64,000 bases of DNA, from positions 19,861-83,860 of IMG/VR virus record IMGVR_UViG_3300020050_009836; one strand, 5' to 3'. The stretch's first letter is position 1. Every line of letters begins with the position of its first letter. The notes beneath the pieces are model-generated. The model did no database searches. It was not told where the DNA came from and saw nothing but the letters and a program-made list of their open reading frames with translations. The stretch comes from a virus (taxonomy: Duplodnaviria; Caudoviricetes). Positions 41,283 through 64,000 of this stretch are shown piece by piece. The translations under genes were made by a program, and so were the position numbers.

Positions 41283-41584
41283 CAGGACCAGACTGCCACC
41301 GTCATGCTGTTTGCTGGTAATAGCCTAACTCAGCAGTCCTGTGGTGGTGGGTGAGTAGTTGATTATGCAAAGATATGCTGCATATACAAATCTATATCTA
41401 GGGATGAATTAGGGAATGCCTCTGTAGGTTCAAATTTGGCGATTCTAGGCACTTTGTATACGTTGTGGATACTTTATCCAATATGTACCAAATGTAGCGT
41501 ATTTAGGCAAAATAGATGCCATGTAGACAAAACAAAACCGGATGATTTCTCATCCGGTTTATTACTACGTGGTGGTGGTAGGTT

Positions 41585-41962
41585 TTATCCTACCGGTACA
41601 AATGACCCGTGAAAGTCTAGGAAACTTTCAGTACCGTCATCCAACTTGATTTCAAAACACATACTAACAGTGGTAGGTTCACCGGATTTACCAGCGGTTA
41701 CCGTCATTTCGTGATGTGTGATGCATCCAGAGTATGCACAGCACATTAACCACGATGCCATGTCAGCGGATTTACCACTAGTGGTAGTAACGTTATCACC
41801 ATAGATAACAGTGGATGAGTACTCATCCATTTCGACAACGTCAAAGTACTTGACAACTTCAGTACGATAGAAACGATGTTGGAATTTGCCATCCGTCCAA
41901 TTGCCATTAGGGCGGATTTGAGTCATTGCGATTGCGTTCTGGATGAGTTGATTTGCTGTCAT
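41585..41962 (-). CDS. cassette protein, GGAACC leader
   Basis: AAGGGAACC-TATC-ATG; terminator at 41533-41561. Confidence 0.8.
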   Translation of the reverse strand: MTANQLIQNAIAMTQIRPNGNWTDGKFQHRFYRTEVVKYFDVVEMDEYSSTVIYGDNVTTTSGKSADMASWLMCCAYSGCITHHEMTVTAGKSGEPTTVSMCFEIKLDDGTESFLDFHGSFVPVG

Positions 41963-42285
41963 GATAGGTTCCCTTCAGAGTCAGTGTAGAACGATTTCTA
42001 CATACCGATGTTACCACTTTGTATACGTACTGCAAGAAAATAAACCGACTATTTTCAAGCCGGTATACAATGTACAAATGTTACTGACAGTCACCATGGT
42101 GGTGACGTATAGTCACATAGGATTTTGGCAGGACGGTAGTTGCATAATCAACTGTTGCTAAATCAACTACTTTTGCAACCTACCTAAATATCCTGTGGTG
42201 GCAGCTCGGTGTGACTATTAGTCACATGCCAGTGATAAAGAAAAACCGGTTGGATGTCCAACCGGTTTGGGTACTACGATGTGGA

Positions 42286-42525
42286 TTAGTCGGCGATGTA
42301 GTCCGTCTGGTTCCACACCTTCACACGATAGGTTTTATTGTTGAAGTCGGTCAATTCCCAGACTTCATTGAGTCCCCAGACTCGGATAAGTTTAGCGGAA
42401 ATAAGGTTTGGATGGATTTCATCCAAAGCGAATTCACGGCTATAAAAGATTTCTATCCTTGCTTTGTTCAAGGATGCCTCACGGGTGAGGTTTTCGGCGA
42501 TACTGATTTCCATTTGCTTTGTCAT
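42286..42525 (-). CDS. cassette protein, GGAACC leader
   Basis: AGGGAACC leader; terminator near 42241. Confidence 0.8.
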   Translation of the reverse strand: MTKQMEISIAENLTREASLNKARIEIFYSREFALDEIHPNLISAKLIRVWGLNEVWELTDFNNKTYRVKVWNQTDYIAD

Positions 42526-42566
42526 TGTTTTGGTTCCCTATTGTTAGTGCAGAACGATTTCTGCGA

Positions 42567-42704
42567 TTATGCCCCGGTTGCGACCTTCACGATTAACATC
42601 ATGAGTACAAAGATAATTCCACACATCGTAGCGATGTAGTGTGGAACCATTTCATTGAGGGTGTCTGCGTCCGGCTTCATGAGTATCTTGATGTGCTTTA
42701 TCAT
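42567..42704 (-). CDS. 45-aa membrane peptide (paralogue of 44972..45109)
   Basis: Manual translation MIKHIKILMKPDADTLNEMVPHYIATMCGIIFVLMMLIVKVATGA. Confidence 0.8.
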   Translation of the reverse strand: MIKHIKILMKPDADTLNEMVPHYIATMCGIIFVLMMLIVKVATGA

Positions 42705-43183
42705 TTTCGTTTTTCCTTTTGATTCAGTGCAGAACGATTTCTACACCGACAAGTTACCACATTGTCAATAGAGTGCAAGTATTTACCTAAACTATTTTTT
42801 CCCTATCCTAAAACAGCAAAACGGCATCTGTTTACCTATAACGTATAGCATTTGACAAATGCCCCTATAGGTTCAAATTTGGCGATTCTAGGCACTTTGT
42901 ATACGTTATGGCATAACTTATCGGTTTGGTGTAAAAACGGCTCCATTTAGGCGAATTTCAAGCGATAGCAAAAACGGGATGGCAAACGATTGTTCGTATG
43001 GTGACTATTCGTCACATGCCGGTTGACAGGAAAGTAGTTGCGGAATCAATAGTTGATTAATCAACTAATTTTGCAACTACCCAATTATCCTGTGGTGGTG
43101 GCTGGTAGTTGATTATGCAACGATGTCATGACAAAGAAAAACCGGTTGGAAATCCAACCGGTTTGATGCCTACGATGTATACA

Positions 43184-43519
43184 CTAGTGAAGGTGTATAT
43201 AGGTACCAGTACCTTCACACGTAACACACTCAATACTTTGTATGCCATACTCAAATGAGTGCATCGTTATGTCGCTAGCGTTCATAATGATGTCAACGGC
43301 ATTGCCTACTGTTATAGGCGTATATTCGCGATTTCTACCCGTTGATAGGTCGTAGGATTCACGAAGGTTCATAATCTCACGGATAACGTCACGTCCGGTA
43401 ACGTCACGACGGGTCACCTCCCATTCAGAGTCAGTATCGGATTGCACGATACGTGCACCGACTTCGATTGCCGTCATGAGTGTGTGGATGATGATTTGCT
43501 TCATTGGTTTGGTTCCCAT
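43184..43519 (-). CDS. cassette protein (MGTK start, or the second ATG at 43504)
   Basis: ATGGGAACCAAA; terminator near 43136. Confidence 0.75.
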   Translation of the reverse strand: MGTKPMKQIIIHTLMTAIEVGARIVQSDTDSEWEVTRRDVTGRDVIREIMNLRESYDLSTGRNREYTPITVGNAVDIIMNASDITMHSFEYGIQSIECVTCEGTGTYIHLH

Positions 43520-43819
43520 TTTCGTTACTGTGTAAGCACGATTGCCTACGGTATTATTTTACCAGATTGTCAACGTATCGCTCATTCTTTTACGTAATAT
43601 ATTGTAAATAGTGCATAACATTTTCACCATGGTGACGTTTGGTCACATCCGCAGTTCACAGGAAAGTAGTTGCGAAATCAATAGTTGCATAATCAACTAC
43701 ATTTACACCAACGAAAAAGTCCTGCCATGTCGGTTGTTTGTTTGATTTTGCAACGATGTCATGACATAAGTAAACCGGTTGGATTTCTCCAACCGGTTGG
43801 ATGCAACCAAGGATATGGA

Positions 43820-44041
43820 TTAGAAATCCAAGTCTACATCCGTTTGTGCGATTACCTTGACGGTGCGTCCGCTTTGGAGCGTCACGCTCCATACTTCAGT
43901 ACCACCCTTGGTACGGATGATTTTCGCATCCACCATACCGGTGAACGTGTCATACGTCATATCGGACGTACGTGACATAAGGATGTCAATGCGGATGGAT
44001 GCCATGGCATCGGTGGTGGTGGTGGTGGTGGTGGTGTTCAT
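43820..44041 (-). CDS. cassette protein with N-terminal poly-Thr
   Basis: AAGGGAACC leader; (ACC)8. Confidence 0.75.
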   Translation of the reverse strand: MNTTTTTTTTDAMASIRIDILMSRTSDMTYDTFTGMVDAKIIRTKGGTEVWSVTLQSGRTVKVIAQTDVDLDF

Positions 44042-44058
44042 ATTGGTTCCCTTTACGA

Positions 44059-44175
44059 TTACTTGACTAGATTGCCAAGGGTGACGATAACAGCGACGAT
44101 GATTGCGAAGGCGAATACACTTGACACAATAAGGGCAAGGTTCATGACTTCGGCTTTGGTGGTTTGGGGTTGCAC
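44059..44175 (-). CDS. 38-aa membrane peptide, leaderless GTG
   Basis: TATACT-6 nt-GTG; VQPQTTKAEVMNLALIVSSVFAFAIIVAVIVTLGNLVK. Confidence 0.55.
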   Translation of the reverse strand: MQPQTTKAEVMNLALIVSSVFAFAIIVAVIVTLGNLVK

Positions 44176-44411
44176 GGCATTAGTATATCAGATTGTCACG
44201 TATACAAGGGTAAATACGGTGGAGCCAAGAAAAATAAACCGACTATTTTTAGCTCGTTTACCAGTGATAGGTATGGTGACTATTTGTCACTATGGTGACT
44301 ATCAGTCACGTGGTGGATAGCAGGAACAGCTGCCAGCAGTGGAGCCTGTGAGGTGGCATAAAAGAAACCGGTTGGATGTCCAACCGGTTTGGGTACTACG
44401 ATGGATGCCGA

Positions 44412-44744
44412 CTAGTCGGCATCTATTATGGTGGCAACGATTTCGTACCACATGCCACCAAAGTAGACATCGCATTCAAGCGTGTCACTCATTGGCGATG
44501 TGGTGATTTCGATGTGATTGATTTCATTTTCAAGCACATCGGTAAGGATGTGATATGCAAGCACATTCACATCGTGGAATTTGACGCTAGATGCATCATT
44601 TGATGCCAGAAATGCACTCTTGAATTCGAGTGCTGGACATTGGCTCACGATGTTATTTGCCGTGTCTTTGTAGCCAATTTCGGCATAGACATAGCCGGAT
44701 GTGCTATGTGCTTTGTTGATGAGAGAGAGGATAAGTGACTTCAT
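44412..44744 (-). CDS. cassette protein, GGAACC leader
   Basis: AAGGGAACC leader; terminator near 44362. Confidence 0.8.
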   Translation of the reverse strand: MKSLILSLINKAHSTSGYVYAEIGYKDTANNIVSQCPALEFKSAFLASNDASSVKFHDVNVLAYHILTDVLENEINHIEITTSPMSDTLECDVYFGGMWYEIVATIIDAD

Positions 44745-44971
44745 TTTGGGCGGTTCCCTTCGTTACTGGATGGCACGATTGCCATGCCAATATTTTACCA
44801 GATTGTCAACATATCGCACATTTATTTAGTTATTACTGCATAAGGGTATTCCGTTGCATAATCAACTACCGGCGGAGTTAGCAGGAACGGCTCTACGTGG
44901 TCGAACCTGCCATCAGGCATAGAAAAACCGGTTGGATGTCCAACCGGTTGGATACTACGATGTGCTACCGG

Positions 44972-45109
44972 TTATGCACCAGTAGCGATTTTGATTGCCA
45001 TCATCACTAGAATGAACGCCAATCCCGTCATTGCAACGATGTAGTGTGGAATCATTTCCTTGACGGTGTCAGCGTCCGGATTCAACAAAATCTTGATGTG
45101 CTTTATCAT
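44972..45109 (-). CDS. 45-aa membrane peptide (paralogue of 42567..42704)
   Basis: MIKHIKILLNPDADTVKEMIPHYIVAMTGLAFILVMMAIKIATGA. Confidence 0.8.
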   Translation of the reverse strand: MIKHIKILLNPDADTVKEMIPHYIVAMTGLAFILVMMAIKIATGA

Positions 45110-45123
45110 TGTCCTATCCTTTC

Positions 45124-45288
45124 CTATAAACCCATGTAGTGACGCGTCACTAGCACGATGAACGTTACGATGCCACCGGTGAAACCGAGCACAAATGCTC
45201 CGAGTAGTACGGTGAAAACGCCAAATGCGAATGGTGACATGACACGACTATAGTCGATGTCGGTGGTGGTGGTTTCTTTGGTTCCCAT
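45124..45288 (-). CDS. 54-aa membrane peptide, leaderless MGTK start
   Basis: TATAAT-7 nt-ATGGGAACCAAA. Confidence 0.7.
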   Translation of the reverse strand: MGTKETTTTDIDYSRVMSPFAFGVFTVLLGAFVLGFTGGIVTFIVLVTRHYMGL

Positions 45289-45527
45289 GCCTATCATTAT
45301 ACAAGATTGTCAACATATCGCACATTTATTTACGTATTACTTGCGAACTGTTGCATAATCAACAAACGGCAAATTATCCTGTAGTCGGTTTTTGTTGCGA
45401 AATCAAGAATGTGACTTTTGGTCACGTCGAAACCGAGAAAAAGCTCAAAAGTCGTAATTGGCGGTTTCTGCACAGTGCAGGGAGGCGGTCTCCGCCCCCC
45501 CCCTCCCCCCCGCCCCGGTGAAATTTT

Positions 45528-45755
45528 TCAATAATGAAAATCGTACACGCAATCAGCACAGAGGTTTATCTCCTCCGTACGTACGACTTCACCCTTGTAA
45601 TCGTGCTTATGAAGGATGCACTCATACACGTCATTTGCGAGTCCATTATTACAGCAGTCGCAACCCATACGTGTAAAGGTTTTTTCTTCACTATTTGTCA
45701 TGGTGACATTTGCACCGGACATCTCAAGCGAATCCAACATTTCTTCCCAAGTCAT
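45528..45755 (-). CDS. Cys-rich cassette protein (paralogue of 48634..48867)
   Basis: CDCC...C..C; AGGGAACC leader. Confidence 0.8.
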   Translation of the reverse strand: MTWEEMLDSLEMSGANVTMTNSEEKTFTRMGCDCCNNGLANDVYECILHKHDYKGEVVRTEEINLCADCVYDFHY

Positions 45756-45937
45756 TTTTGGTTCCCTCCGTAGCATTTCGCTACATCAATATAATAACAT
45801 GTCTGGTATACAAAGTCAATATATTTCCAAGTAAATGTCTGGACATTCTGGTGGCAGGATATTTTGCTTCCAGCCTCACCTGTGAGAAAACGAAAAAGAA
45901 AAAGCCGGGATTTCTCCCGGCTGCTAGCAGTTGCCTA

Positions 45938-46192
45938 CTAGATACTGCGATAGGCTGCGACAGCTCGCTGCATAGGCTCCAAGTACTCACAGCGGACCAT
46001 GAAAGCTTGCATTTTGAGTGATGCAATTTCGTTTGGCGTTTGTGCATCACGGATACCATCTATCATGATTTCCAGTGCATGCAGCGCATCGGACAAATCA
46101 GAGCTTGGCACAGCATGCATGCGAGCGATAACGGATGCAACGGAGTCGGAGGACGTGTCTACGGAGTCCCAACCGTGTGTAGTGTTTTCCAT
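45938..46192 (-). CDS. leaderless MENTT protein
   Basis: TTGACA-17-TAAGAT-6 nt-ATGGAAAACACTAC. Confidence 0.85.
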   Translation of the reverse strand: MENTTHGWDSVDTSSDSVASVIARMHAVPSSDLSDALHALEIMIDGIRDAQTPNEIASLKMQAFMVRCEYLEPMQRAVAAYRSI

Positions 46193-46366
46193 GTCTATAT
46201 CTTATGCCATAAATGGGAGAATGTCAACAACTATTTTGCATTTACGTGAAATAGTTTTGTTGCATAATCAAACAACTGGCAGCGGCAGGATAGACGGGTA
46301 GTCATGAGTCCTGCTAGTAGGCAAGAAAAGAGCCGGTATTTCTACCGGCTTGACTAGGATAGGTTT

Positions 46367-46597
46367 CTACTTGAAACCTATCCGTTTCCTCCACGTTGGG
46401 GCATTTCTCGGCTCTGAGCGGTACCGCAGCTCTGCATTGCAGTAGTGCATTTCGTCGGAGTAGTAACCGGTATTACTATTCCACGGTTGGAGCTCGATTA
46501 CTTGCTGGCAATCAGCGATTATGTAATTGAGCGAGTGATTCGACAGTGTAGCCGCGTACCGCTGGTACTCGGAATGTTGCATGTGTTTGGTTCCCAT
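46367..46597 (-). CDS. leaderless MGTK cassette protein
   Basis: TTGCAA-17-TAAATT-6 nt-ATGGGAACC. Confidence 0.8.
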   Translation of the reverse strand: MGTKHMQHSEYQRYAATLSNHSLNYIIADCQQVIELQPWNSNTGYYSDEMHYCNAELRYRSEPRNAPTWRKRIGFK

Positions 46598-46763
46598 GCA
46601 TCTAATTTACCATCACTTTGTATACGTTGCAAATGTATTTTGTTGTTAGAGAATAACTATTGAATATGCAACTATCTGTAGAAGAGTGGCAGGACTGCTG
46701 AGTAGGTGTACAGCCTGTCGCTAGGCAAAAGAAAACTCGGATTTCTCCGAGTTAGTTCACTAA

Positions 46764-47018
46764 TCAATAAGTTATGTAAACTGATGTGTGGTGAATGTTG
46801 TCCATCAAAACGCACTCATCCATTACCGTGATGCACCAGCGGTGATGTTCAAATGTCATAAAGTGAGTCCGCTCACCGGTCTTACGGTACCGATTAATAG
46901 CCGTGGTCGCTTTTGTTTCGTATACCTTTGCATATTCCGGCTTGCTACCCGGCAATTCGTCAATGTAAATTTCGTACGTTGGATGCTTGATGCTCACTAG
47001 TGTTGCGATTGTTTTCAT
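46764..47018 (-). CDS. cassette protein, GGAACC leader
   Basis: AGGGAACCAAT-ATG. Confidence 0.8.
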   Translation of the reverse strand: MKTIATLVSIKHPTYEIYIDELPGSKPEYAKVYETKATTAINRYRKTGERTHFMTFEHHRWCITVMDECVLMDNIHHTSVYITY

Positions 47019-47303
47019 ATTGGTTCCCTCACCTAAATATTACCATAGTTTGTATACGTGCACACTATTATTCACTCAATTTCAAAACTATTTTTCAGCG
47101 AGATTTAGGCAGGACAATCAGCCTACTGCCAAGCCTGTCGATGTGACCAGCAGTCACGTGTGACTCAGCGTCACGTTGGTGACTATCAGTCACGGTGACC
47201 AGCCATCACTATGTGAATATGCCCTATACAGGTGGTCTGTGTGGCACCCCCCCCCTCCCCCTGAGCTGGAAAAAGGAAAGCCGGGATTTCTCCCGGCTGG
47301 TGA

Positions 47304-47504
47304 CTACGCTTCGTTGCACGTTGCGCAGTCGTTGCAGATATCTTCATCTGCTATCCAATCATCCTCCCAAACCCAGTCACCGCACTGTGTGCACTGCATG
47401 GTGCTAGGCTCCGCACCGTAGCAATCATCATCCATATCACCCGTCATCATCTCAGCATCCAGCCACGGTGCGATATTCGATTCCAACATCCATTCTTCGT
47501 CCAT
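47304..47504 (-). CDS. acidic Zn-ribbon-like cassette protein
   Basis: CTQC...C..C..C; AGGGAACC leader. Confidence 0.8.
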   Translation of the reverse strand: MDEEWMLESNIAPWLDAEMMTGDMDDDCYGAEPSTMQCTQCGDWVWEDDWIADEDICNDCATCNEA

Positions 47505-47679
47505 TTGGTTCCCTCTTTCCTACACTATTAATATATCATTGCACGTAGACAATGTCAAGAAAATAGACAAAGTATTTTAGTTGCATAATCAACAAACAAC
47601 GGGAATGGCAGGAATGTCGATAGGTATAGCAGCCTGTGATAAAGCAAAAGATAGCCGGGATTTCTCCCGGCTTGAGTTA

Positions 47680-47961
47680 TTAGAAGGGTAAAACCTCCTC
47701 ATCCAACTGCATGAAGATGTCGGCTTCACAGATTTGTAGCACCGGCTCAGTGCACCATGGACGCTCAATAACCACGTCCACTCTAAAGTCAGAGTAATCT
47801 GCCGAGTGCTTTCCAATGACACTTTGAAGCATTTGCTTCGCTAGTACCATTTTGAAATTACGGGTCACTTCGTCCTCAATGTTGAAGCGAAGGGAAACGA
47901 GCGACTCAAGCCGTTCGTCACCACGACCGACGAAGTCGAAATGAAGTGTAGTGTTTTCCAT
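47680..47961 (-). CDS. leaderless MENTT protein
   Basis: TAAGAT-6 nt-ATG. Confidence 0.85.
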   Translation of the reverse strand: MENTTLHFDFVGRGDERLESLVSLRFNIEDEVTRNFKMVLAKQMLQSVIGKHSADYSDFRVDVVIERPWCTEPVLQICEADIFMQLDEEVLPF

Positions 47962-48099
47962 GTCTATATCTTATCACACTTTGTCAATACTGCAAGAACT
48001 ATTTTATGCAAGGGTGAGGCTTGGCAGGAGTAGCACCGAGCATGACAGCCTGTCATGAGACATAAAAAGAGCCGGTATTTCTACCGGCTGGTGGATGTC

Positions 48100-48429
48100 C
48101 TAGACTGCGAGTCCAAGACATCCGATAACGGCTCCCGTGGAGTCCCGTACGAGTCCGTGTGGACTCACAAGGTCGATTCTATGTGAAGCGGCTGCTTTCA
48201 CGAGTCCCGACACAATATACCGAGTCCCCTTGATTGGTTCAGGAAGTCCGGTGATATCACCGTATGCTACACCGAATACGGGGATTTTCCCGTTCACAAG
48301 TGCAGTCTGCACCTCTTGGGTTTCGACACGTGCCACACGCCCATTTGCTGGGAATGTGTGGATGATATTGCCATTTGGCGATACCACACGGATTGCGTGT
48401 GGAGTGAGATTGATAAAGCGAGTCTGCAT
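48100..48429 (-). CDS. conserved phage protein (NLTPH motif)
   Basis: INLTPH..G.VARV..GLP.P...IVS..V; GGAGGGGAACC leader. Confidence 0.8.
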   Translation of the reverse strand: MQTRFINLTPHAIRVVSPNGNIIHTFPANGRVARVETQEVQTALVNGKIPVFGVAYGDITGLPEPIKGTRYIVSGLVKAAASHRIDLVSPHGLVRDSTGAVIGCLGLAV

Positions 48430-48633
48430 GGTTCCCCTCCGAAGTGGATTAGGTTGTTTCCTATCCACACACTAATAATACCATACCTATTGACAATGTC
48501 AAGCGATATTGCAAACTATTTCGTATTTTGTTGTTTGATTATTCAAATAGATGTAAGGCTTGGCAGGACTAACACCTAGTATGGCAGCCTGTCATGAGGC
48601 ATAAAAAGAGCCGGGATTTCTCCCGGCTTTCGC

Positions 48634-48867
48634 CTATTCACCGTAGTGGAAGATACACAGACACTCAGCACATATGCTAACTTCTTCGGTTCGTACCACT
48701 TCACCGGTGTAATCGTGCTTGTGTAGTACACAGTCGTACACATCGTTCCCTAATCCATCGTTGCAACAATCGCAACCCAATCGGCGGAATGAGCGTTCTT
48801 CGCTGCCGGTCATCGTGACATTAGCACCGGACAATTCGAGCGAGTCTAGAAATTCTTCCCAAGTCAT
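48634..48867 (-). CDS. Cys-rich cassette protein (paralogue of 45528..45755)
   Basis: Colinear with and highly similar to its paralogue. Confidence 0.85.
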   Translation of the reverse strand: MTWEEFLDSLELSGANVTMTGSEERSFRRLGCDCCNDGLGNDVYDCVLHKHDYTGEVVRTEEVSICAECLCIFHYGE

Positions 48868-49009
48868 TTTCGTGGTTCCCTTTATAGCACTTGGCTACAC
48901 TAGAATAATACCATACTGGTAGACAAAGTCAAGAAGTATTTAGTTATTAGATAATAGTTGAATCCGCAACGACAGGAGTTGCTACCACTCAGTAGTCCTG
49001 CCATCCGGC

Positions 49010-49168
49010 TCAATCCTCCTTTCCTTTGTGCTTTGCTTTCCGGCTGTACTCACGTTTGTTGTCATACGTCATCGATTTCTGCCACGGGCGGTCACTAGCC
49101 GGTATCCGTGATTTCACGGCTGTACGGGCATTCTGGAGCTCTGTGGAGGTAAGTTTAATTGTTTTCAT
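49010..49168 (-). CDS. 52-aa basic peptide, ArfA-like C-terminus
   Basis: Manual translation ends YDNKREYSRKAKHKGKED; AAGGGAACC leader. Confidence 0.65.
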   Translation of the reverse strand: MKTIKLTSTELQNARTAVKSRIPASDRPWQKSMTYDNKREYSRKAKHKGKED

Positions 49169-49219
49169 TTGGTTCCCTTTCAAAGATAGAGCCGGTATCT
49201 CTACCGGCTCATTGAGTGA

Positions 49220-56083: not shown

Positions 56084-56286
56084 TGTCGGTTCCCTTAGTA
56101 GGCTAGGCTTGTTCCTTCCTACACTATTAATATACAGCATACGTTGACAATGTGCAAATGAATTACCAAAAATAAATAAAGAATGTTAGTTGACTAATCA
56201 ACGAGCTACGACGGCTTTACAGGCTGCCATAGTAAGCTGATATCCTGCCATCAGGCAAAGAAAAAGGAGCCTCTCGGCTCCTCCTC

Positions 56287-56502
56287 CTATAACCCTTCGT
56301 TGAACTCTTTGACTACTTGGTTAAAGAGTCTGTCGTTTGCTTCCGTGTACTTCCGGAACTCTTCACGTAGCTTGCGGATTAGTTCCGCCTTGCTTACTGT
56401 GTCGTCGAATTCAACGTCATTTACGACGTATGAAACATTGAATGCGTGGTGCGTTGCGACTGTTAGACGCTTTTGCGTGTAGTCGGTAGTAGTGTTTTCC
56501 AT
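56287..56502 (-). CDS. leaderless MENTT protein
   Basis: TTGACA-17-TAATAT-6 nt-ATG. Confidence 0.85.
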   Translation of the reverse strand: MENTTTDYTQKRLTVATHHAFNVSYVVNDVEFDDTVSKAELIRKLREEFRKYTEANDRLFNQVVKEFNEGL

Positions 56503-56545
56503 GTCTATATATTACCCTTACTTTGTCAATGTGTCAAGTCTTTTT

Positions 56546-56800
56546 TCAACTATTTTGAAAATAAGTCTCATAAATGTCTTTGTGACCCGTTGCCTTTTCG
56601 TACAAGTCATCCGACCGCTTTGTGTAGCGGTTCCATGTGGCGACAAGAGCGTCAAGCATCTCATCCCGTTGGATTTCCTTGTTTACGCTTGCTCTGCACA
56701 GCAAGAGGTACATTTCGCCTACGGCATCCACAGCGATGTTTTCACGCTCTGCTGTGTACTCTGCCATTGTCAACGGTTGGGTTTGTGTAGTGTTTTCCAT
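56546..56800 (-). CDS. leaderless MENTT protein
   Basis: TTGACA-17-TAAGAT-6 nt-ATG. Confidence 0.85.
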   Translation of the reverse strand: MENTTQTQPLTMAEYTAERENIAVDAVGEMYLLLCRASVNKEIQRDEMLDALVATWNRYTKRSDDLYEKATGHKDIYETYFQNS

Positions 56801-56970
56801 GTCTATATCTTACAGCACTTTGTATACTATGTCAAGGAGTTTTTGAAGTATTTTCAAAGCACTTTTAGCAGGAGCTGCTACCAGCATACTAACCTGCCAC
56901 AAGGAAAGCAAAAGAGCCGGTAGGCTGTAGACCTACCGGCTTTCTCTACCGTCGCACCACCGACGGATTC

Positions 56971-57300
56971 CTATATTTCCGTCGCTTGTAAACACTTTCG
57001 TGATGTGTCATTCAACTGAGCATCACCGTGGAAATGAGCCGGTTGTGAGCGTTGGATAGTCCATTTTTCAATGATACTAGACTTGATGTGCTTGACTTGA
57101 AAGTCGATAGCACGACCGTAATTCTTCTCCGACCAGTTCTGCAACACATAGCCGTTTTCGGATGCGTATTGACTAGCGTAGGTATCCATACGGGTATGCC
57201 ATGCTACGTCTACATCCATGACATCGATGATAAGAGGAGTCGGGTACGTGCTCGTTGTGAGCATGAAGACAACTTTCGTTGTGAGTGTAGTGTTTTCCAT
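56971..57300 (-). CDS. leaderless MENTT protein
   Basis: TTGACA-17-TAACAT-6 nt-ATG. Confidence 0.85.
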   Translation of the reverse strand: MENTTLTTKVVFMLTTSTYPTPLIIDVMDVDVAWHTRMDTYASQYASENGYVLQNWSEKNYGRAIDFQVKHIKSSIIEKWTIQRSQPAHFHGDAQLNDTSRKCLQATEI

Positions 57301-57503
57301 GACTATATGTTAGCCCATAAAATAGACTTTGTCAATAACTATTTCAACTATTTTTTACTTGCATAATCAACAACAAAAGAGTGTTAGCAGGATAGGTGAC
57401 GTACAGTCAAGCCTGTAAAGGTGGGATGTGACCCAGAGTCACCATGATGTCTGTCAGTCACATACCAGAGCAAAGAAAAAGCCGGGATTTCTCCCGGCTT
57501 GGA

Positions 57504-57767
57504 TTACATCCCCTTCTCTACAGCGAGCTCTAGAGCCTTCTCTGTGAGGTACCAGCCGTACTTTTTCATGTCTGGTTCGTAGCCGACTAGTCCAGCCTCT
57601 TGTGCGCCAGAGATAACACCGCCGGTCTTCTCGGCACTCCAGCCGGTCACCTCAGACACCATACACGCACCAAACCAAGAATGGTTGTCACCTTGAAGTT
57701 GCTCTGCCGTTTCGTACGGGCTATCGGCGATTACCACTTCTATCAAACGAGTCTGCAATTCAGTCAT
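57504..57767 (-). CDS. cassette protein (possible winged helix)
   Basis: Long leader; terminator near 57480. Confidence 0.8.
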   Translation of the reverse strand: MTELQTRLIEVVIADSPYETAEQLQGDNHSWFGACMVSEVTGWSAEKTGGVISGAQEAGLVGYEPDMKKYGWYLTEKALELAVEKGM

Positions 57768-58052
57768 TTTGGTTCCCTCAGTAGGCTAGGTCAGTTCCTT
57801 CCTACACATACATAATAAGGCATAGATTAGACTTTGTCAACAACTATTTTGACTATTTTTTGCACGTTTACCAGTGATAGGTATGGTGACGTTTGGTCAC
57901 GGGTATCTTTACAGGTTCGACTCCGATGTGACTATCCGTCACCATAGTGACTATCCGTCACGTCCAAAGCAAAAAGAAAACCACCAGACGTAGCCTAGTG
58001 GTTGCACAATGCAGGTACGAGTCTTTGCACCCCCCCCGCCCCCCGGCAGAGC

Positions 58053-58301
58053 CTACACCTCTTCGGTGTAAGCATCTACCTCTACAAGGATTTTGTCGAT
58101 GATGTATGCGGCTTGGAGAACGTTGACGGTGTGGTCACAGTCCGCTTCAAGCTGTGCAATGCACGGTCCACCTTCACGGTGGTTAGCAGAGCATCCATTA
58201 TGCCCCTCACAGCAAGGGTGAAACATGTACTCTGGTGCTTGCTCGTTGACGTGGAAGCGGATGTACTCGGCGGTACCGTAGGTAACTTGTGTAGTGTTCA
58301 T
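58053..58301 (-). CDS. leaderless MNTT protein, Cys/His-rich
   Basis: TTGACA-17-TAATAT-6 nt-ATG. Confidence 0.8.
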   Translation of the reverse strand: MNTTQVTYGTAEYIRFHVNEQAPEYMFHPCCEGHNGCSANHREGGPCIAQLEADCDHTVNVLQAAYIIDKILVEVDAYTEEV

Positions 58302-58452
58302 GCCTATATATTACAGCACATTGTCAACGTTGTCAAGTAGTATTTTGTTGTTTGTTTATGATGGATACAACTAGTCACGGAGAAGTATCACAGGATAGAT
58401 GAGTAGGTGTATGACCTGTAATCACCCAAAAAGAAAAGGAGCCTTTCGGCTC

Positions 58453-58929
58453 CTACTCAAACGCTGGCGTCTTGTACAACTCGTTGATTCGCATCCACCA
58501 GTCAAGGACTCGGAACGTCCACCACTGAGGGTCACAGATAGCCTTGAGGTCATCTGGCGCCTTGGTGCTGAAGTTGATTTGAGCCTTACGGGCTAGTAGG
58601 CTGCCTTCTTCAAGTTGGCTGTCGTGCACCGTGTTGTAGAACGCATTACGAAGGCTATCCTCTGAGTATGCGACGTCTACTAGCATCTGGCTGGCTACCG
58701 CGTAGTCGGTGACTCCAGAGTCCTTCTCAAGGGCGTCTACAGCCGTGTTGAACAGCTTCTGACCTAACTTGTGCATGTCAAACAAGACATCCTTGTTGGT
58801 TGCACCATCGATAAAGATTCCCTTGAGTGCGAGATAACTCAGCATTTCAAAGGCGTCGCTTTCGAAGGCGGCGAGCTCTGGATTTTCCATAGCCCATCTG
58901 AGTCGTGCATGCTTTTCTTGATTCGTCAT
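58453..58929 (-). CDS. hypothetical protein
   Basis: SD GGAGG; second gene of a cassette. Confidence 0.8.
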   Translation of the reverse strand: MTNQEKHARLRWAMENPELAAFESDAFEMLSYLALKGIFIDGATNKDVLFDMHKLGQKLFNTAVDALEKDSGVTDYAVASQMLVDVAYSEDSLRNAFYNTVHDSQLEEGSLLARKAQINFSTKAPDDLKAICDPQWWTFRVLDWWMRINELYKTPAFE

Positions 58930-59202
58930 TTAATTTTCCTCCTCCGAGATATTGATTGTTGCTACGAGTTCATTGAACTCCCAAGCGGGTGAACCCTTGG
59001 ATGCAACGTGGATACCGTTGCGGATGATAACGAACTCGATATCGTCATCTGACTCAAACCAAGAGTAGAACGCATCCTTGAACTCAATGAGTGAGTAGAA
59101 GTCTGGATTGTGTTGACCGTCAGAGATTCGCATCTGCTGTCCGAGTGCCCGCACGTGATTGTTCATCAAGCGGAGCGTGTCTAAGAGTTGATATTTGTTC
59201 AT
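58930..59202 (-). CDS. cassette protein, GGGAAGGGAACC leader
   Basis: Complete 5' module. Confidence 0.8.
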   Translation of the reverse strand: MNKYQLLDTLRLMNNHVRALGQQMRISDGQHNPDFYSLIEFKDAFYSWFESDDDIEFVIIRNGIHVASKGSPAWEFNELVATINISEEEN

Positions 59203-59263
59203 TGTGGTTCCCTTCCCTACACTACTATCTTACACTATACATGACAGTATGTCAACAACTATT

Positions 59264-59494
59264 TCAACTATTTTCCAGCACACGGAACATGATTTCTCCG
59301 TCCCATCCGTCGTGGAAAACGATTGTCAAGTCGTCTTCGTCTGGCGCACAGACGATATTGTCAACGTCACCGCCGACGTAGTTCCTCATCCAGAACTGTG
59401 CAAAGCGTGTCAGGCGCTCAGCATCCATACCCTCAGTGCGAGAGGTCAGTACCTCTGTCTCAATGTCCGTTCCCGATACTTCAACTTTTGTCAT
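59264..59494 (-). CDS. cassette protein, AAGGGAACC leader
   Basis: Own promoter. Confidence 0.8.
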   Translation of the reverse strand: MTKVEVSGTDIETEVLTSRTEGMDAERLTRFAQFWMRNYVGGDVDNIVCAPDEDDLTIVFHDGWDGEIMFRVLENS

Positions 59495-59550
59495 CGTGGT
59501 TCCCTTTCCTACACAACTATGTTACACTATACATCACACTTTGTCAAGTA

Positions 59551-59817
59551 CTATTTTAGAATAAATGTGACCTCAATAAGTTGAGGCACAGTCATCTCCC
59601 AGAGCATCCGCCCCTTGACGGTGTAGGAGCCATCCTTGACGGTGATACCGTCGAACTGGTACCCCTTGACGCTTGACGTGTATAGCAAGCTGCGGACGCT
59701 GTATACATCCACGAAATGCTTGATGTCGATAAGACTTTGTGGCGTCGAAGTCTTGAAGTTGATGATTTCGTACCGTGAGCGGTCTCTTGGTAGGTTGTCC
59801 AGTATCTTTGCACTCAT
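59551..59817 (-). CDS. cassette protein with a ~145-nt structured leader
   Basis: Promoter TTGACA-17-TAACAT at 59969-59997. Confidence 0.75.
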   Translation of the reverse strand: MSAKILDNLPRDRSRYEIINFKTSTPQSLIDIKHFVDVYSVRSLLYTSSVKGYQFDGITVKDGSYTVKGRMLWEMTVPQLIEVTFILK

Positions 59818-60204
59818 GTCGTTTCCCCTTGGATAAACTTACGGGAGAAAGGTTGTGTCAGTCTCCCATAAGGTTCGCATAAGAGATTGTGGATTTAACC
59901 ACTCCAAGGTTGCTACCCTTATTTGAACAACACAACTTGTTCTAGCCGTTCTGGTCTCTTACACCACTATGTTACACCATACATGCTACTTTGTCAACAA
60001 GTATTTCAACTATTTTCAAAGATGCTAGCTGGACTCTTACAGGAGGTGACTGTCAGTCACGTGAACAGTTGTTTGTTGCATAATCAACAATGTGACTTTC
60101 CGTCACACATGAAAAAAGGAGCCTCACGGCTCCCTATAAATATATGCACAATGCAGGTGCGAAAACTCCGCACCCCCCCCAGCGTGGAGGGAGCCTTACC
60201 CAGA

Positions 60205-60456
60205 CTATGGCTTGTAGTCTGGGTAGATGATGAGGTTGTACATCCCGTTGCGGCTATCAGAGTAGTACTGAAGTACATACCCAGCATCATGAAAGAATGT
60301 CAAAGCCGTCTCACGGGAAATGTCAATGTGATGATGACTCTCAGTGACACCGTTCGGCACAGCGAGCCTAACCATCAGGTCGTTCTCAACGATGAAGCGG
60401 TAGGCCTTGTGCCCGTAGAAGTACTCAATCTTGTGTGGGGTTGTAGTGTTTTCCAT
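60205..60456 (-). CDS. leaderless MENTT protein
   Basis: TTGACA-17-TATAGT-6 nt-ATG; start revised. Confidence 0.85.
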   Translation of the reverse strand: MENTTTPHKIEYFYGHKAYRFIVENDLMVRLAVPNGVTESHHHIDISRETALTFFHDAGYVLQYYSDSRNGMYNLIIYPDYKP

Positions 60457-60664
60457 GTACTCACTATACATCCTTACTGGTACTTTGTCAAGTACATTTG
60501 TAAATATATTCAGTAAGCAGCTTGGGAGTTTTACAGGAGGTGACTCTGGGTCACGTTACCAGCAGTCATCAGCCTTCTGTTGTTTGTTTATTTAATTGAA
60601 CAAGTGTTTTATTATTTGCACAATGCAGGTGCGGAATCTTGGCACCCCCCAGAAATGGAGGAGT

Positions 60665-60744
60665 AAAAAGGTGGACGGAAAACACTACTAAACCGTCCAC
60701 CAACCTAGGCTGGGAATGGGAAGGGGAAGGGAACCATCCTAGGC
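60665..60744 (-). ncRNA. candidate ~80-nt antisense small RNA
   Basis: Own promoter, no ORF, two hairpins and a U5 terminator; carries GGUUCCCUUCC and UAGUAGUGUUUUCC. Confidence 0.8.
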
Positions 60745-60750
60745 ATACTA

Positions 60751-60779
60751 AGTATAGCCATTCCCCACTCCCATGTCAA
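60751..60779 (-). promoter_or_regulatory. promoter of the candidate sRNA
   Basis: TTGACA-17-TATACT. Confidence 0.85.
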
Positions 60780-60985
60780 GCGCGCCTAGGCTTCCGTAAG
60801 CTCTTGTTAGGAGCTGCATAATCGTGTGAGGCGTCGTAAGAGTCAAGGAAGGATTCTATGAACTCATTCCTAAGGCTGCCATACACGCACTTCTCACCCT
60901 TGAAAACAAGGATTACTGGGTTCAGTGAGTTCAGCTCACTCACGATGGTAAGTCCAAGTGAGTGAGCCTTCTTCTCGGTTGTCAT
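60776..60985 (-). CDS. hypothetical protein
   Basis: ATGA coupling. Confidence 0.65.
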   Translation of the reverse strand: MTTEKKAHSLGLTIVSELNSLNPVILVFKGEKCVYGSLRNEFIESFLDSYDASHDYAAPNKSLRKPRRA

Positions 60986-61293
60986 TCTTTGACCTTTGGC
61001 GGGAAGTCGATTTGGATGGATATATCACGATGAGTGAAGTTCATCTCGTCGTAATCATCATACTCCCACAACTGACGGTGCGTTGCGTTGTCGCTGGTGA
61101 GCAACTTCAAGAAGTCGTCACGCATGATGTTACGCATCTCGTTGATGACCCACTCGTGATACTCACCGTGAGTAGCCTTCACCATAAAGTGCACCTTCAG
61201 AATGTTGCAGTGCTCCGGCTTGTGGTAGTGCTCGAAGATTTTCACTGCGTCGTCCTTCTTCAGCTTCGTCAATTTGACTTTAGTGTTTCCCAT
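60982..61293 (-). CDS. leaderless MGNT protein
   Basis: TTGACA-17-TATAGT-6 nt-ATG; start revised. Confidence 0.8.
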   Translation of the reverse strand: MGNTKVKLTKLKKDDAVKIFEHYHKPEHCNILKVHFMVKATHGEYHEWVINEMRNIMRDDFLKLLTSDNATHRQLWEYDDYDEMNFTHRDISIQIDFPPKVKE

Positions 61294-61572
61294 GTGTTCA
61301 CTATACATGGTACTAGGTAGTTTGTCAAGAACTTTGTGTAAATACTTTTCAAGAGCTGGAGGTCTTACAGGATGTGACGCTCAGTCACCATGATGACGCT
61401 CAGTCACGTAGTGGAGTACAGATTACGTTTCAGGCTCCACAAACTGTATGCCCATTGCAGGTGCGAAAACTTGCACCCCCCCCGCTGGCTGTTTAAACGC
61501 TAAATAATGGCATTTACGAAAATGGACGGAATTATAAGCAATTCCGTCCAAATGTAACCGTTTTTGTTGTTT

Positions 61573-61911
61573 TTAGTCAACATCTAATGGTTTTTCGACC
61601 ATTTTGTCCTTTAATTGACCAAAAAGTAGTGTGTCTGGGTCTGCTTCAGCCTCTGATTTAGCATCCTTCAAACCTAGTAGGATTTTCAAGGCATCGTTCC
61701 AGCCAACACTTACGAATGTGTCCTCCTCAGTCCAGTGGAGGATTTGGTTGTCTTCAAAGCGGAAACTCTCCTCCCAGCCGTCAGCGACGATAAAGGTAAC
61801 GAGTGTGCCACTAACAGTGAACTCTTTTATCTGCCCCGCACAGGCTAACTGATGCACAAGGAGCAAACCCTTCTCCTTAATCATGCTGTCGATGTATTCT
61901 TCGTACGTCAC
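61573..61911 (-). CDS. hypothetical protein
   Basis: GTG start overlaps the TGA of the 29-aa MENT ORF; terminator at 61519-61550. Confidence 0.75.
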   Translation of the reverse strand: MTYEEYIDSMIKEKGLLLVHQLACAGQIKEFTVSGTLVTFIVADGWEESFRFEDNQILHWTEEDTFVSVGWNDALKILLGLKDAKSEAEADPDTLLFGQLKDKMVEKPLDVD

Positions 61912-61997
61912 TTTACAATGACCCCCTTCTGAACGAACTCAATGAGGAACCGTTGCGCCCACTCTTCTGCTGTAAGACCGTCTATAGTGTTTTCCAT
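61908..61997 (-). CDS. 29-aa leaderless MENT peptide
   Basis: TTGACA-17-TATAGT-6 nt-ATG; MENTIDGLTAEEWAQRFLIEFVQKGVIVK. Confidence 0.7.
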   Translation of the reverse strand: MENTIDGLTAEEWAQRFLIEFVQKGVIVK

Positions 61998-62040
61998 GTA
62001 TTCACTATACATGAAGAACTACTGTTTGTCAACTAATTAC

Positions 62041-63033
62041 CTATGTATTTTCATCTTCGGCCAGCATGTATACGTCAGCCTTGTTAACTTTGTTTTTCAC
62101 TAGTAGGTTATTGGCGACAGCATCTTCAAGGGCTTGCTGTAACTGCGCTGTACCAAGTTTCGTGGCTTCCAGTATGTCTTTACGGGACATAGGTAACTCA
62201 GACTCTCGCATAGCCTCCATGACGCGCTTGACGCCTACTGAGTGGTCTTTCTTGCGTTCAGCCATAACGATTCGTCCGTTGTCATATCTACAGTAGAACT
62301 TATGACCAGTACCCCCATAGCGCGTCTTAGTTGCATCGACACTGATTAGGTTACGGCTAGACTCCTTCATCTTTATCTCAGCGTCTACAACTGCCGTAAT
62401 CGAAGATGCTCCACGTGTAGTGGTTCCATAGCCGTACTCAGCCTTTGAAACGTGATGCGTCATGACGGTTGTGATGCCCTTCTTAGGAAGCATCTTTATA
62501 CCCATCAAGATGTCGCTCATCTGACCGTTGTCGTTTTCATTGGCGTGTGGAAACGCAGCTGAGAGTGTGTCTATGAAAACAACACCAATCTCTTTGTCTT
62601 GACAGAACTGTATGAGGTTATTGATGACAGACGTCTTCGTCAGGTCATACATGTCATACCTAGTCTCTCCGTCTATCTCGACCATGATGTCACCCTGAAT
62701 CATCGGTATAGGACAATCAGGTGCGTGACGTATGTTGTAAGCCGTATGCTGCCTAACACTCATGTCGTACTGGATGAATACGCACTTAGACTTGTAGTCA
62801 ACATTCATACCGAAGAAAGGCTCACCAGTAGTAATGCTTTTTGCCATCATGAAACACAGTGACGTCTTACCGAGTCCGGAAGCTGCCGTCAGTAGTGTTA
62901 GTGTGTCTCGCTCCAAAAAGCCATTAATTAAAAACTCTGGCTCCGGAGGCATTGTCATGTCGGGATAGACCATACGTGATTCCGTGTACTCTGTCGAAAA
63001 CCGCTTTACTGGCTCGGTTGCTACTGTTGTCAT
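62041..63033 (-). CDS. RepA/AAA_25-like helicase with C-terminal wHTH
   Basis: Walker A AASGLGKT, Walker B VFIDTLS, HHVSK and RGASSI; leaderless promoter TTGCGC-17-TAATCT-6 nt-ATG. Confidence 0.85.
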   Translation of the reverse strand: MTTVATEPVKRFSTEYTESRMVYPDMTMPPEPEFLINGFLERDTLTLLTAASGLGKTSLCFMMAKSITTGEPFFGMNVDYKSKCVFIQYDMSVRQHTAYNIRHAPDCPIPMIQGDIMVEIDGETRYDMYDLTKTSVINNLIQFCQDKEIGVVFIDTLSAAFPHANENDNGQMSDILMGIKMLPKKGITTVMTHHVSKAEYGYGTTTRGASSITAVVDAEIKMKESSRNLISVDATKTRYGGTGHKFYCRYDNGRIVMAERKKDHSVGVKRVMEAMRESELPMSRKDILEATKLGTAQLQQALEDAVANNLLVKNKVNKADVYMLAEDENT

Positions 63034-64000
63034 GAGCCGAGATTATCATTACTGGAAAAGGAGCGCAATAGGCTAAATCATCGTTACTAGAATTTCTATA
63101 TATATATAAAATAGTAACAACGATGGAGACCCTAATTTCAAAAAGGTTTCCCCTTATAATAACCCCTTCCAAAAACTCAGGAAGGCTTCGCCACCTTCCT
63201 TTGTTCCACTCCGTGGTTTCCATAGGTTGGTGACTAATAGTAACCACAAACAACCAAGACGTTTGGATTCTTACAGGATAGTAGTTGCATAATCAACTGT
63301 TGCTAAATCAACAACGTGACTACTAGTCACATACCCCTAAACAGCAAGTAGCCCCTACGTAGTATTTGCACAATGCAGGCGCAAAAACTTGGCACCCCCC
63401 CCAGCCCCCTGACTCAACGTAATGCTCTGCACACCCTAACTGAGTCAGTTGTTTGTTTATATTATTCTCATCATTCAATGGAATCTCTCTAAACCACTAA
63501 CAACAAAAAGTGGCTGATGAGTCAGTGCTGGTGGCAACCGTTACCTCTGAGGAACGCAAAGGTAAAAGACTAGCACTAGTCCATCAACCACTCTCCTAAT
63601 GAGCACCACTGAGAAGTCGCTTATACCACCAGTGGTAAGTCAACAGTACAAGTCGTGCATCCTTGCCTTGTCAACCCTCACTTGTATTATAGCATAATAA
63701 GTGTACAGTAGCCTTTAATTATCGAATTAGTTCTTGAAGAATCTGGTGATTATGACAGGATGTGTGACCTCTAGTCACGTCACAGGCACCACGGGTTCGT
63801 AACAAAAGCCAGTTAGGTGTGAAGTTTTGTTAAGGCACGTATGTAAGACACGAAATACGTCCAAAACAGGAGAAATGGTGGTGGAAAGGGGTTGCGTATG
63901 GGTGAGAGCAGTGGTAGAATGAGAAAAATATCGTCTGCGCCCCCACACCTCCACATTCTCCAAATTACCCCAAAACCCTTAAACACTACCTCTCCCTCCC

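Follow-up and report, generated by a model that had tools for sequence, protein, structure and literature searches.

The right end of the genome of an uncultured aquatic phage, IMGVR_UViG_3300020050_009836, an IMG/VR record of 83,860 bp (linear, CheckV completeness 100%), is occupied by a dense array of small open reading frames (ORFs), every one of them on the minus strand, and raises the question of why genes that differ so much from one another are embedded in the same repeated intergenic parts. The array is analyzed here within a window of 64,000 nucleotides, which corresponds to bases 19861-83860 of the record and supplies the coordinates used below. It is probably the early, host-RNA-polymerase-dependent arm of a lytic tailed phage, built as a hyperplastic array of autonomous expression cassettes. 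Following the terminator of the preceding unit, such a cassette comprises a CAGG-N20-CCTG box, a GTTGATTATGCAAC-like box, an UP-like AAAATAGTT(..CTATTTTC) element, a near-consensus sigma-70 promoter, one of two standard start modules and the ORF. The cassettes would fire at once on the unmodified host polymerase while being insulated from one another, and their repeated parts would double as portable homology for recombination, as in the promoter-early stem-loops (PeSLs) of T4-type phages, possibly with the help of a YqaJ-type exonuclease. The standard start modules would furthermore provide a common handle for global shut-off, most likely via an array-encoded small RNA (sRNA) whose loops would pair with the ribosome-binding site (RBS) of one module (module B) and with the mRNA 5' end of the other (module A), blocking ribosome binding. 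The ORF products, finally, would act on the host, in takeover or in counter-defence.

Transcription of the array runs from high to low coordinates, and 49 ORFs were called between 63986 and 41585. Five paralogous pairs occur among them, the remaining ORFs being mostly unrelated to each other, as the first-pass annotation of this locus had stated. In 27 orthologue pairs formed with an 82.5-kb relative (G001; 70-80% nucleotide identity, 10 copies of the leaderless motif A described below), codon position 3 is the most changed, which points to protein-coding selection. Change rates are 0.37 at this position versus 0.25 and 0.20 at the other two for the leaderless class, and 0.38 versus 0.17 and 0.15 for the class with a leader (class B). 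Because the third codon position varies most between orthologues, the array ORFs are real genes.

The promoters are the most conspicuous common part. On the gene strand of the array, 27 sites match at least 10 of the 12 positions of TTGACA-16/18-TATAAT. A set of 100 dinucleotide shuffles gives 3.4 +/- 1.7 such sites, the opposite strand of the array has 2, and the other 61 kb of the genome have 16 on their two strands. The rarity of strong sigma-70-type promoters elsewhere in the genome fits an early class of genes. By strict criteria 31 of the 49 ORFs have their own promoter, a number that rises to about 36-38 when extended -10 and TGGTAAnnT types are counted, and the ORFs without one are grouped in mini-operons of two to four genes. 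The claim that nearly every gene carries a promoter was hence overstated, although it holds for the majority. Upstream of the promoters, AAAATAGTT is found in 16 copies, all on the minus strand between 42790 and 60016, where 0.85 would be expected and none of 100 shuffles reached 16; this bears out the shared element that had been reported to precede the promoters. The degenerate form AAATA[GC]TT occurs 28 times on the gene strand of the array and once on that strand in the rest of the 83.9-kb genome, and in 23 promoters it starts exactly 9 or 18-19 nt before the -35 hexamer. In the longer register the arrangement reads AAAATAGTT-N3-CTATTTTC-TTGACA, and the position and composition of AAAATAGTT-N3-CTATTTTC, judged by the E. 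coli consensus, suggest an UP element. The GTTGATTATGCAAC-like box is an imperfect palindrome that lies 34-44 nt before the -35 hexamer in 10 of the 12 promoters having one.

The cassette boundaries are similarly standardized. A hairpin followed by a T-run, resembling a terminator, is predicted after 36 of the 49 ORFs, so that the earlier statement of one terminator per gene applies to most ORFs but not to every one. These predicted terminators include a few near-identical families, namely AGCCGG(G/T)AGAAAT(C/A)CCGGCT (10 copies), GAGCCGAAAGGCTC (9 copies) and AACCGGTTGGA..TCCAACCGGTT (5 copies). The CAGG-N20-CCTG box comes 16-19 nt after the T-run. It has 26 copies in the array, in 25 of which N is exactly 20, and is absent from both strands of the other 61 kb; the 29 copies in G001 all have N = 20. 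A second box, the palindrome GTGAC-N5-GTCAC, is present 24 times in the genome, in each case within 42102-63778 and in the longer intergenic regions, often as tandem copies 17-19 nt apart. The fixed inter-cassette boxes of the first-pass annotation are thus recovered in both forms, each confined to the array region. The palindromes also lie within about 120 nt downstream of every copy of a further part, the G-run element, which consists of G6-10, a variable hairpin and CCTGCAWTGKGCA. Its consensus fold is a weak hairpin with one covarying pair, and at four copies (60180, 58044, 54332 and 51720) a terminator follows directly. An Rfam search of 41000-64000 returned no family, the G-run element included.

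Two start modules connect these promoters to the ORFs. Motif A, ATGGAAAACACTA(C), has 12 exact copies, all of them on the minus strand. Its ATG lies 6 nt after the -10 hexamer (TAnnnT) in 10 of the 12 copies and 5 nt after it in the other 2, without a Shine-Dalgarno (SD) sequence, and the same distance of 5-6 nt is found in 225 sites from relatives. The geometry of sigma-70 promoters puts the transcription start (+1) shortly after the -10 hexamer. Because of this geometry and the 5-6 nt spacing, the A of the motif-A ATG is the expected +1, and the motif-A genes should be expressed as leaderless mRNAs. The ATG is followed by an invariant GAAAACACTAC, so that the proteins start with MENTT; the exact starts read ATGGAAAAC, with GAAAACACUAC as the 11 nt after the ATG. 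This start heads at least 23 unrelated protein families among 200 distinct ORFs in the contigs examined.

The level at which motif A is constrained was analyzed in 95 independent sites from relatives, none of which had been used to fish contigs. At these sites no change is seen in the wobble base of codon 3, and 4 changes in that of codon 4, while codon 2 shows 13 first-position and 8 second-position changes, which turn E into R, N, Q, K or G. Furthermore, the 11-mer GAAAACACUA also occurs as an untranslated leader just before the AUG, in W_16 (the W numbers denote ORFs of this array) and in the metagenome contigs L155 and L195. Since the wobbles are frozen, codon 2 changes are non-synonymous and the 11-mer can serve as a 5' untranslated region, the constraint acts on RNA or DNA and not on the peptide. 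The possibility that MENTT is a conserved peptide signal, for instance a targeting tag, was considered and rejected, the pattern of variation being that of an RNA constraint.

In motif B, the transcript opens at about +1 with GUAGGAAGG, and the leader closes with AGGGAACC-N4-5-AUG. Its core GGGAACC precedes an ATG by 3-9 nt at 24 places in the array, compared to a single place on the same strand outside it. About half of the leaders have a 5'-terminal hairpin, which in the long form folds the first 25 nt and is supported by compensatory changes (GUAGA/UCUAC in W_21 versus GUGGA/UCCAC in the G001 orthologue). Stem-loops at the 5' end are known to stabilize mRNA, and by analogy the motif-B hairpin should do the same. 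Genes outside the array have weak or no SD sequences, and both start modules are therefore regarded as array-specific. The two initiation motifs noticed previously are accordingly both real, but they differ from their first description, one being a leaderless ATG after the -10 hexamer and the other a GGGAACC leader.

The autonomy of the cassettes is best seen by comparing relatives. A metagenome scan with a 22-base promoter-plus-start pattern matched at least 120 contigs, and 22 contigs among the matches listed align to the array at 77-98% identity. Cassette orders were compared in 21 genomes or contigs (20 relatives and this genome). The upstream half of the array is stable, families 5-21 being subject to insertions and single replacements (7 or 43; 10 or 44; 18 or 64), and the downstream half is combinatorial. 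Between families 24 and 27 the slot holds {25 26}, {25}, {}, {46} or {46 25}; between families 31 and 34 it holds {32 33}, {33 32}, {32} or {33}, with {47 48} replacing 30-33 in other cases; and family 34 is followed by 35, 59, 56 or 10. The family 10 cassette (window 57767) is found about 10 kb away in G001. Since neighbouring orthologues range from 25% to 98% in amino-acid identity, the array has a mosaic makeup. Exchange extends to the start modules, because W_06 has three different starts among relatives: it is leaderless in L151, L152 and L238 (ATG 6 nt past the -10 hexamer), is preceded by a GGGGAACC leader in G001, and has a long leader in this genome (Table 1). The slots between conserved neighbours thus hold different cassette sets in 20 related contigs, in line with the autonomous, plug-and-play units that had been proposed, and gene order and content are not fixed but show gain, loss, replacement and reordering, with junctions in the repeated chassis.

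The position of these junctions bears on the mechanism. In the comparison with L238 (90-95% identical), the rearrangement junctions fall within 20-82 bp of repeated terminator/CAGG chassis, as in the indel of W_29 and the reversed order of W_35 and W_36 (Table 1), and two extra cassettes are flanked by 20- and 82-bp repeats. The first-pass annotation had called the array integron-like, and a truly site-specific system can indeed be envisaged in which the CAGG-N20-CCTG and/or GTGAC-N5-GTCAC boxes are the sites of a dedicated, unrecognized phage or host recombinase that mobilizes single cassettes. The geometry of the CAGG box is rigid, in this genome as in G001, and limited to the array; the boxes stand at cassette boundaries, with the observed crossovers in or beside them; their ends are invariant and the 20 nt between them variable, in the manner of a protein site; and the 24 palindromes are likewise confined to the array. 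However, searches of the whole 83.9-kb genome gave no match to the tyrosine recombinase model PF00589 (the control matched in 14 of 14 genomes) and detected neither a serine recombinase/resolvase nor a Y1 transposase. In addition, the junctions lie in identity tracts of 20-82 bp that ordinary homologous recombination explains, some of them (the W_29 indel) in the terminator rather than within a complete CAGG box, and the cassettes of the array, unlike those of integrons, come with promoters of their own. A site-specific mechanism is therefore considered very improbable, and the integron-like label is best abandoned. As for the single-strand annealing protein (SSAP)/YqaJ system to which shuffling had been attributed, the YqaJ-like exonuclease and an SSB are present, but RecT, ERF and Rad52 models, and PHROGs applied to the neighbours of the YqaJ gene, identified no annealing protein.

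Whether the cassettes are also controlled jointly is a separate question, for which a candidate is available within the array itself. One unit, with a promoter of its own (Table 1), contains no ORF of 20 aa or more and encodes a putative sRNA with a predicted fold of -29.7 kcal/mol (z = -4.1). Loop 1 of this sRNA contains GGUUCCCUUCC, antisense to GGAAGGGAACC leaders. Loop 2, the terminator loop, contains UUUAGUAGUGUUUUCC, which is antisense to the GGAAAACACUAC(UAAA) that leaderless mRNAs have at their 5' end. This complementarity suggests a repressor that masks the module-B RBS and the module-A 5' AUG region. Pairing was assessed by contiguous-match counts and loop-only energies, since large interior loops made the energies of full-length duplexes uninformative. 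For loop 2, each of the 12 exact-motif leaderless starts offers 11-14 contiguous nt of pairing. Its median energy over all 14 leaderless-class starts is -12.1 kcal/mol; the 93 control start regions give -4.1 kcal/mol, not one of them reaching -12, and shuffled loops give -4.3. In hairpin 1 the apical region, made up of the loop, the AUGG beside it and bases of the inner stem, has matches of 8-13 contiguous nt to 23 out of 23 class-B leaders, versus at most 7 in the controls. L152 and L238 have the unit unchanged, and L151 has 2 differences near the start site, so that the unit is 98-100% conserved in three relatives that are 79-95% identical elsewhere (79-90% for L151). G001 was excluded from this comparison, its contig ending before the region. 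With a candidate sRNA, operator-like palindromes and 5' hairpins all present, the multi-layer control that had been proposed earlier is plausible.

Two observations on similar sequences may be recorded here. Hairpin 1 of the sRNA contains a 10-codon frame (60707-60739, minus strand), AUG GUU CCC UUC CCC UUC CCA UUC CCA GCC UAG, whose predicted peptide MVPFPFPFPA is Pro/Phe-rich and of a kind able to stall ribosomes. Two more GGUUCCC (anti-RBS) segments are present in 3' untranslated regions at window positions 49616 and 55163, again on the minus strand, and may represent additional anti-leader RNAs; the former follows W_30, and the latter forms part of the 329-nt spacer downstream of W_16, where a GUCGG..CCGAC hairpin immediately before a terminator holds it in its loop.

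Module A is not restricted to this lineage. The same -10 hexamer and spacer, as TGTAATATATAGNC-ATGGAAAACACTAC, are found in contigs of 33-36% GC (L097, L098, L139, L163 and L184), including a contig of 358 kb and a 56-kb fragment rated 16% complete, which have no other chassis part and no protein in common with this phage. In some of these contigs the units with the ATGGAAAACACTAC leaderless module are arranged divergently. A scan of 185,579 prokaryote species, with one genome each, for the 19-base leaderless module gave two matches without promoter context, about what chance predicts, and pointed to no host and no prophage. The leaderless module may represent an optimum imposed by the host, or else phages may have exchanged it as a part.

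The former possibility can be extended to the entire chassis, which would then be an expression optimum for the host, kept uniform by concerted evolution (gene conversion), with the rearrangements incidental and the sRNA a functionless inverted relic of two chassis pieces. The near letter-for-letter recurrence of module A in the 33-36% GC lineage is what a host-imposed optimum predicts, a C/U-rich loop will pair with any purine-rich RBS, and the sRNA was not found outside one lineage, a scan of viral contigs for both loops together having given a single match, by chance. Such a relic would nevertheless have to bring both antisense segments into one 80-nt unit, each placed in the loop of a hairpin, with a consensus promoter on one side and a U-run terminator on the other, in a unit more conserved than its flanks. 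An antisense 11-mer and 12-mer within 40 nt are expected by chance at about 5e-8 per such genome (a rough estimate), and the frozen wobbles in at least 23 unrelated proteins are unexplained unless the RNA itself is recognized. The optimum explanation is accordingly considered distinctly unlikely.

Recognition of the RNA does not by itself require an sRNA. Going by work in E. coli, CA- and A-rich sequence past a 5'-terminal AUG, such as that of motif A, is expected to favour leaderless translation. The start modules could be recognized by the ribosome or by a phage or host protein, such as a RegA-like repressor or a RegB-like endoribonuclease, with the sRNA at most accessory. There is a precedent in T4 RegA, which competes with ribosomes on about 30 early mRNAs at their initiation regions (PMC3014915), and the presence of module A in the 33-36% GC lineage without a visible sRNA points in the same direction. 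On the other hand, no RegA- or RegB-like family was found among the array ORFs, the rest of the genome not having been scanned for them, and protein recognition leaves the two-loop antisense unit unexplained. As a substitute for the sRNA this explanation seems rather unlikely; it is compatible with the cassette reading, however, and the two can coexist. In its most extended form, the latter would have translation initiation of the entire early gene set standardized into two RNA modules, so that an sRNA of about 80 nt, with one loop per module, could turn off or tune some 37 unrelated genes jointly as an RNA counterpart of RegA. Unrelated aquatic phages, among them jumbo phages of about 358 kb, would exchange the leaderless module as a portable expression plug. 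This extension is put forward tentatively, as a possibility that falls somewhat short of being probable.

Several points weigh against the reading of the array as autonomous early cassettes under common control. About one quarter of the ORFs lack a promoter or terminator of their own. The starts of transcription, its efficiency of termination, the timing of expression and the sRNA itself are all predictions from sequence, and the sigma-70 consensus is assumed to apply to the array promoters. Homologous recombination is deduced from the positions of the junctions, with no SSAP identified by the RecT, ERF and Rad52 models. The specificity of loop 1 is weak, with 10 of the 93 controls reaching -12 kcal/mol and a shuffled-loop median of -9.6, since a C/U-rich loop pairs with purine-rich RBSs generally. 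The sRNA is limited to the lineage of this genome, L151, L152 and L238 and is near-invariant there, so that covariation is absent, and the fragments examined of the 33-36% GC lineage have module A and no such sRNA. Furthermore, Pfam and PHROG searches with the 47 small ORFs, and look-alike searches with two array proteins, matched no protein of known function, and 'host takeover/anti-defence' is an argument by analogy throughout. An early, host-directed role of the ORFs is suggested by analogy with the ORFans associated with PeSLs and with Bacillus phage SPO1's host-takeover module, and by the host-type promoters of the array and their scarcity elsewhere in the genome.

The closest described system is formed by the PeSL regulatory cassettes of the T4-type phages RB49/phi1, PST and nt-1 (Arbiol et al. 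2010, PMC2839356; Comeau et al. 2014, PMC4122927). A PeSL combines a repeated sigma-70-like promoter, having an AT-rich upstream region, with a stem-loop terminator in which polyG tracts have been noted (PMC2839356). They cluster in hyperplastic regions, upstream of ORFans, and recombination between them gives rise to indels and swaps (PMC2839356, PMC4122927); excised mini-circles are associated with them. The array resembles them in its strong sigma-70-like promoters with an AT-rich upstream region, as the promoter counts show, in the stable stem-loops predicted as terminators or attenuators, in the confinement of these parts to a variable region upstream of ORFans, and in the indels and replacements between relatives that end in the motifs. 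In contrast, PeSLs belong to T4-type myoviruses, whereas the array lies in a genome of 84 kb that is not recognizably T4-type. Its unit is longer (130-330 nt), has more fixed parts and adds a standardized translation start (the leaderless module or a fixed leader), operator-like palindromes, the fixed-spacing CAGG-N20-CCTG box and a candidate sRNA antisense to both modules. What goes beyond PeSLs is hence the RNA-constrained leaderless module, the candidate two-loop sRNA, and the array-only palindromes and G-run elements.

The SPO1 module comprises 26 small early genes in the terminal region of the genome, for which experiments have shown functions in shutting off cell division and the host's synthesis of DNA and RNA (PMC6873191). 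Both systems have dense small genes of an early type, strong host-type promoters and initiation signals, and many short operons near a genome end. However, the array ORFs are known from sequence alone, and a shared leaderless module, boundary boxes and cassette shuffling have not been reported for SPO1. With integrons the array has in common a linear series of unrelated single-gene units of varying content with an inverted-repeat element at the unit boundary. The integron attC site is formed by imperfect inverted repeats of variable length, R''-L''...L'-R', with a GTTRRRY core. The boundary element of the array, in contrast, has a fixed 20-nt spacer and no GTTRRRY core; an IntI-type integrase, attI and attC are absent, each unit has its own promoter instead of a common Pc, and the junctions lie in homology tracts. 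As regards control, the array shares with T4 RegA/RegB the principle of one regulator acting on the initiation regions of many early mRNAs. The phage antisense RNAs c4 of P1/P7 and sar of P22 mask an RBS, and here too an antisense RNA loop would pair with an RBS. The proposed regulator differs from all of these in being an RNA with two loops for two modules that could reach about 37 of 48 genes, and a literature search turned up no many-target phage sRNA of this two-loop kind.

If correct, this reading implies that the PeSL principle, by which the same parts drive expression and serve as crossover points, operates outside the T4-type phages and far more regularly, with twenty natural variants that document cassette shuffling. 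It also makes available a library of about 50 early genes of unknown function, with many more in the relatives, for toxicity and counter-defence screens. How leaderless mRNAs are recognized can be approached directly with the short leaderless module, whose first 14 nt are held constant, as RNA, across at least 23 protein families and across two phage lineages that differ in base composition. The candidate sRNA, in turn, would make it possible to test whether a single small RNA governs dozens of genes by way of uniform start modules.

Table 1. Coordinates of the array, its representative parts and neighbouring features (window numbering)
Feature	Position	Strand	Details	Evidence
Array	41585..62032	-	about 48 small ORFs of 29-158 aa; about 35-38 promoter-ORF-terminator units	gene/intergenic map, promoter statistics, terminators
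Representative leaderless cassette, W_14	56287..56556	-	71-aa ORF; GAGCCGAGAGGCTC terminator	
Parts of W_14	56556 (AAAATAGTT); 56537-56509 (promoter); 56502 (ATG)	-	AAAATAGTT; TTGACA-17-TAATAT; 6 nt; ATG + GAAAACACTAC	
Other exact motif-A starts	61997, 60456, 57300, 56800, 55011, 54606, 54116, 51490, 50129, 47961, 46192	-		
Representative long-leader cassette, W_15	55817..56158	-	promoter; predicted hairpin GUAGGAAGG..CCUAGCCUAC; single-stranded AGGGAACC-N4-AUG	
Representative short-leader cassette, W_22	52317..52772	-	AAAATAGTT-N10-TTGACA-17-TATATT; leader GUAGGAAGGGAACCGAU-AUG; 127-aa ORF	
Long leader of W_06	59819..59964	-	146 nt, this genome only, between promoter 59997 and ATG; no Rfam match	
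Representative boundary module	48564..48628	-	terminator AGCCGGGAGAAATCCCGGCT + T-run, about 17 nt, CAGG-N20-CCTG; holds crossover points	terminator families, junction sequences
Tandem GTGAC-N5-GTCAC pair (example)	57928..57961	.	19-nt spacing	
G-run element (example)	60130..60183	-		
G-run element, nine gene-strand copies	63402, 61483, 60650, 60180, 58044, 54332, 51720, 47255, 45511	-		
W_29 cassette	49921..50220	-	leaderless; absent from L238, L134, L150 and L181; indel bounded by about 45 bp of repeated terminator	
W_35 + W_36	47680..48429	-	order reversed in L238; three junctions, each in 49-77 bp of terminator + CAGG box	
Candidate trans-acting sRNA unit	60665..60779	-	TTGACA-17-TATACT promoter; about 80 nt; two hairpins + U-run	
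Distal sub-array	41585..45520	-	different part set	intergenic map, motif counts
AAA_25/DnaB-like ATPase	62041..63033	-	330 aa; upstream flank of the array	Pfam AAA_25 E = 4e-22; PHROG primase/helicase families
YqaJ-like exonuclease gene	30569-31216	-		

Outside the array, the left 41 kb of the window encodes a portal protein, a major head protein, a large terminase (TerL), a thymidylate synthase and an MT-A70 methylase, in addition to the SSB and exonuclease mentioned above. TerL is at most 41% identical to that of any isolate, with T4-like phages not among the best matches, and near-identity nucleotide searches with the array and the structural region gave no match in 50,697 phage records, while a 55-nt promoter-plus-start query returned generic promoter resemblance only. 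A search for a phage RNA polymerase or sigma factor found none, a weak answer, as the polymerase control search matched nowhere. Chassis parts continue through the upstream flank to about 63780, in the form of a G-run element, GTGAC palindromes and GTTGAT..GCAAC boxes. The 37 long genes (at least 150 aa) outside the array, in window 1-41282 and genome 1-19860, mostly have no recognizable SD sequence, which hints at a host with low SD usage. G000 and G001, assembled independently, start within about 250 bp of one shared genome position, and the contig of G001 ends at the equivalent of window 59863, within the repeated chassis. These contig ends may reflect a true physical terminus or, alternatively, repeats at which assembly broke off, and it is possible that the array lies at the end of the DNA that enters first.

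Among the array proteins, Pfam and PHROGs searches identified DUF7249 in two ORFs, a marginal DUF7230 and five unnamed PHROGs. The paralogues W_15 and W_20 (55817-56083 and 53325-53582, minus strand) share the N-terminus MSxYNGWxNW and are the sole array ORFs with a recurrent named family. They are probably the two array members of DUF7249 and phrog_871, the latter assignment being confirmed for W_15. Language-model look-alikes of two array proteins were unnamed clusters only, below a reliable score.

The distal sub-array has a different set of parts. Its terminators are of the AACCGGTTGGA..TCCAACCGGTT family, preceded by CATCGTAG, its promoters are of the TGGTAAnnT type with TTGACA merely 6 nt upstream, and paired GTTGAT..GCAAC boxes are present. 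Two short leaderless ORFs that are absent from the ORF list (45150-45320 and 44060-44175, minus strand) are also found here and appear to encode membrane peptides. One of the two starts with ATGGGAACC, 7 nt past a TATAAT, and the other has a GTG start 6 nt past a GATACT-like -10 hexamer and an orthologue, G1_39, in G001.

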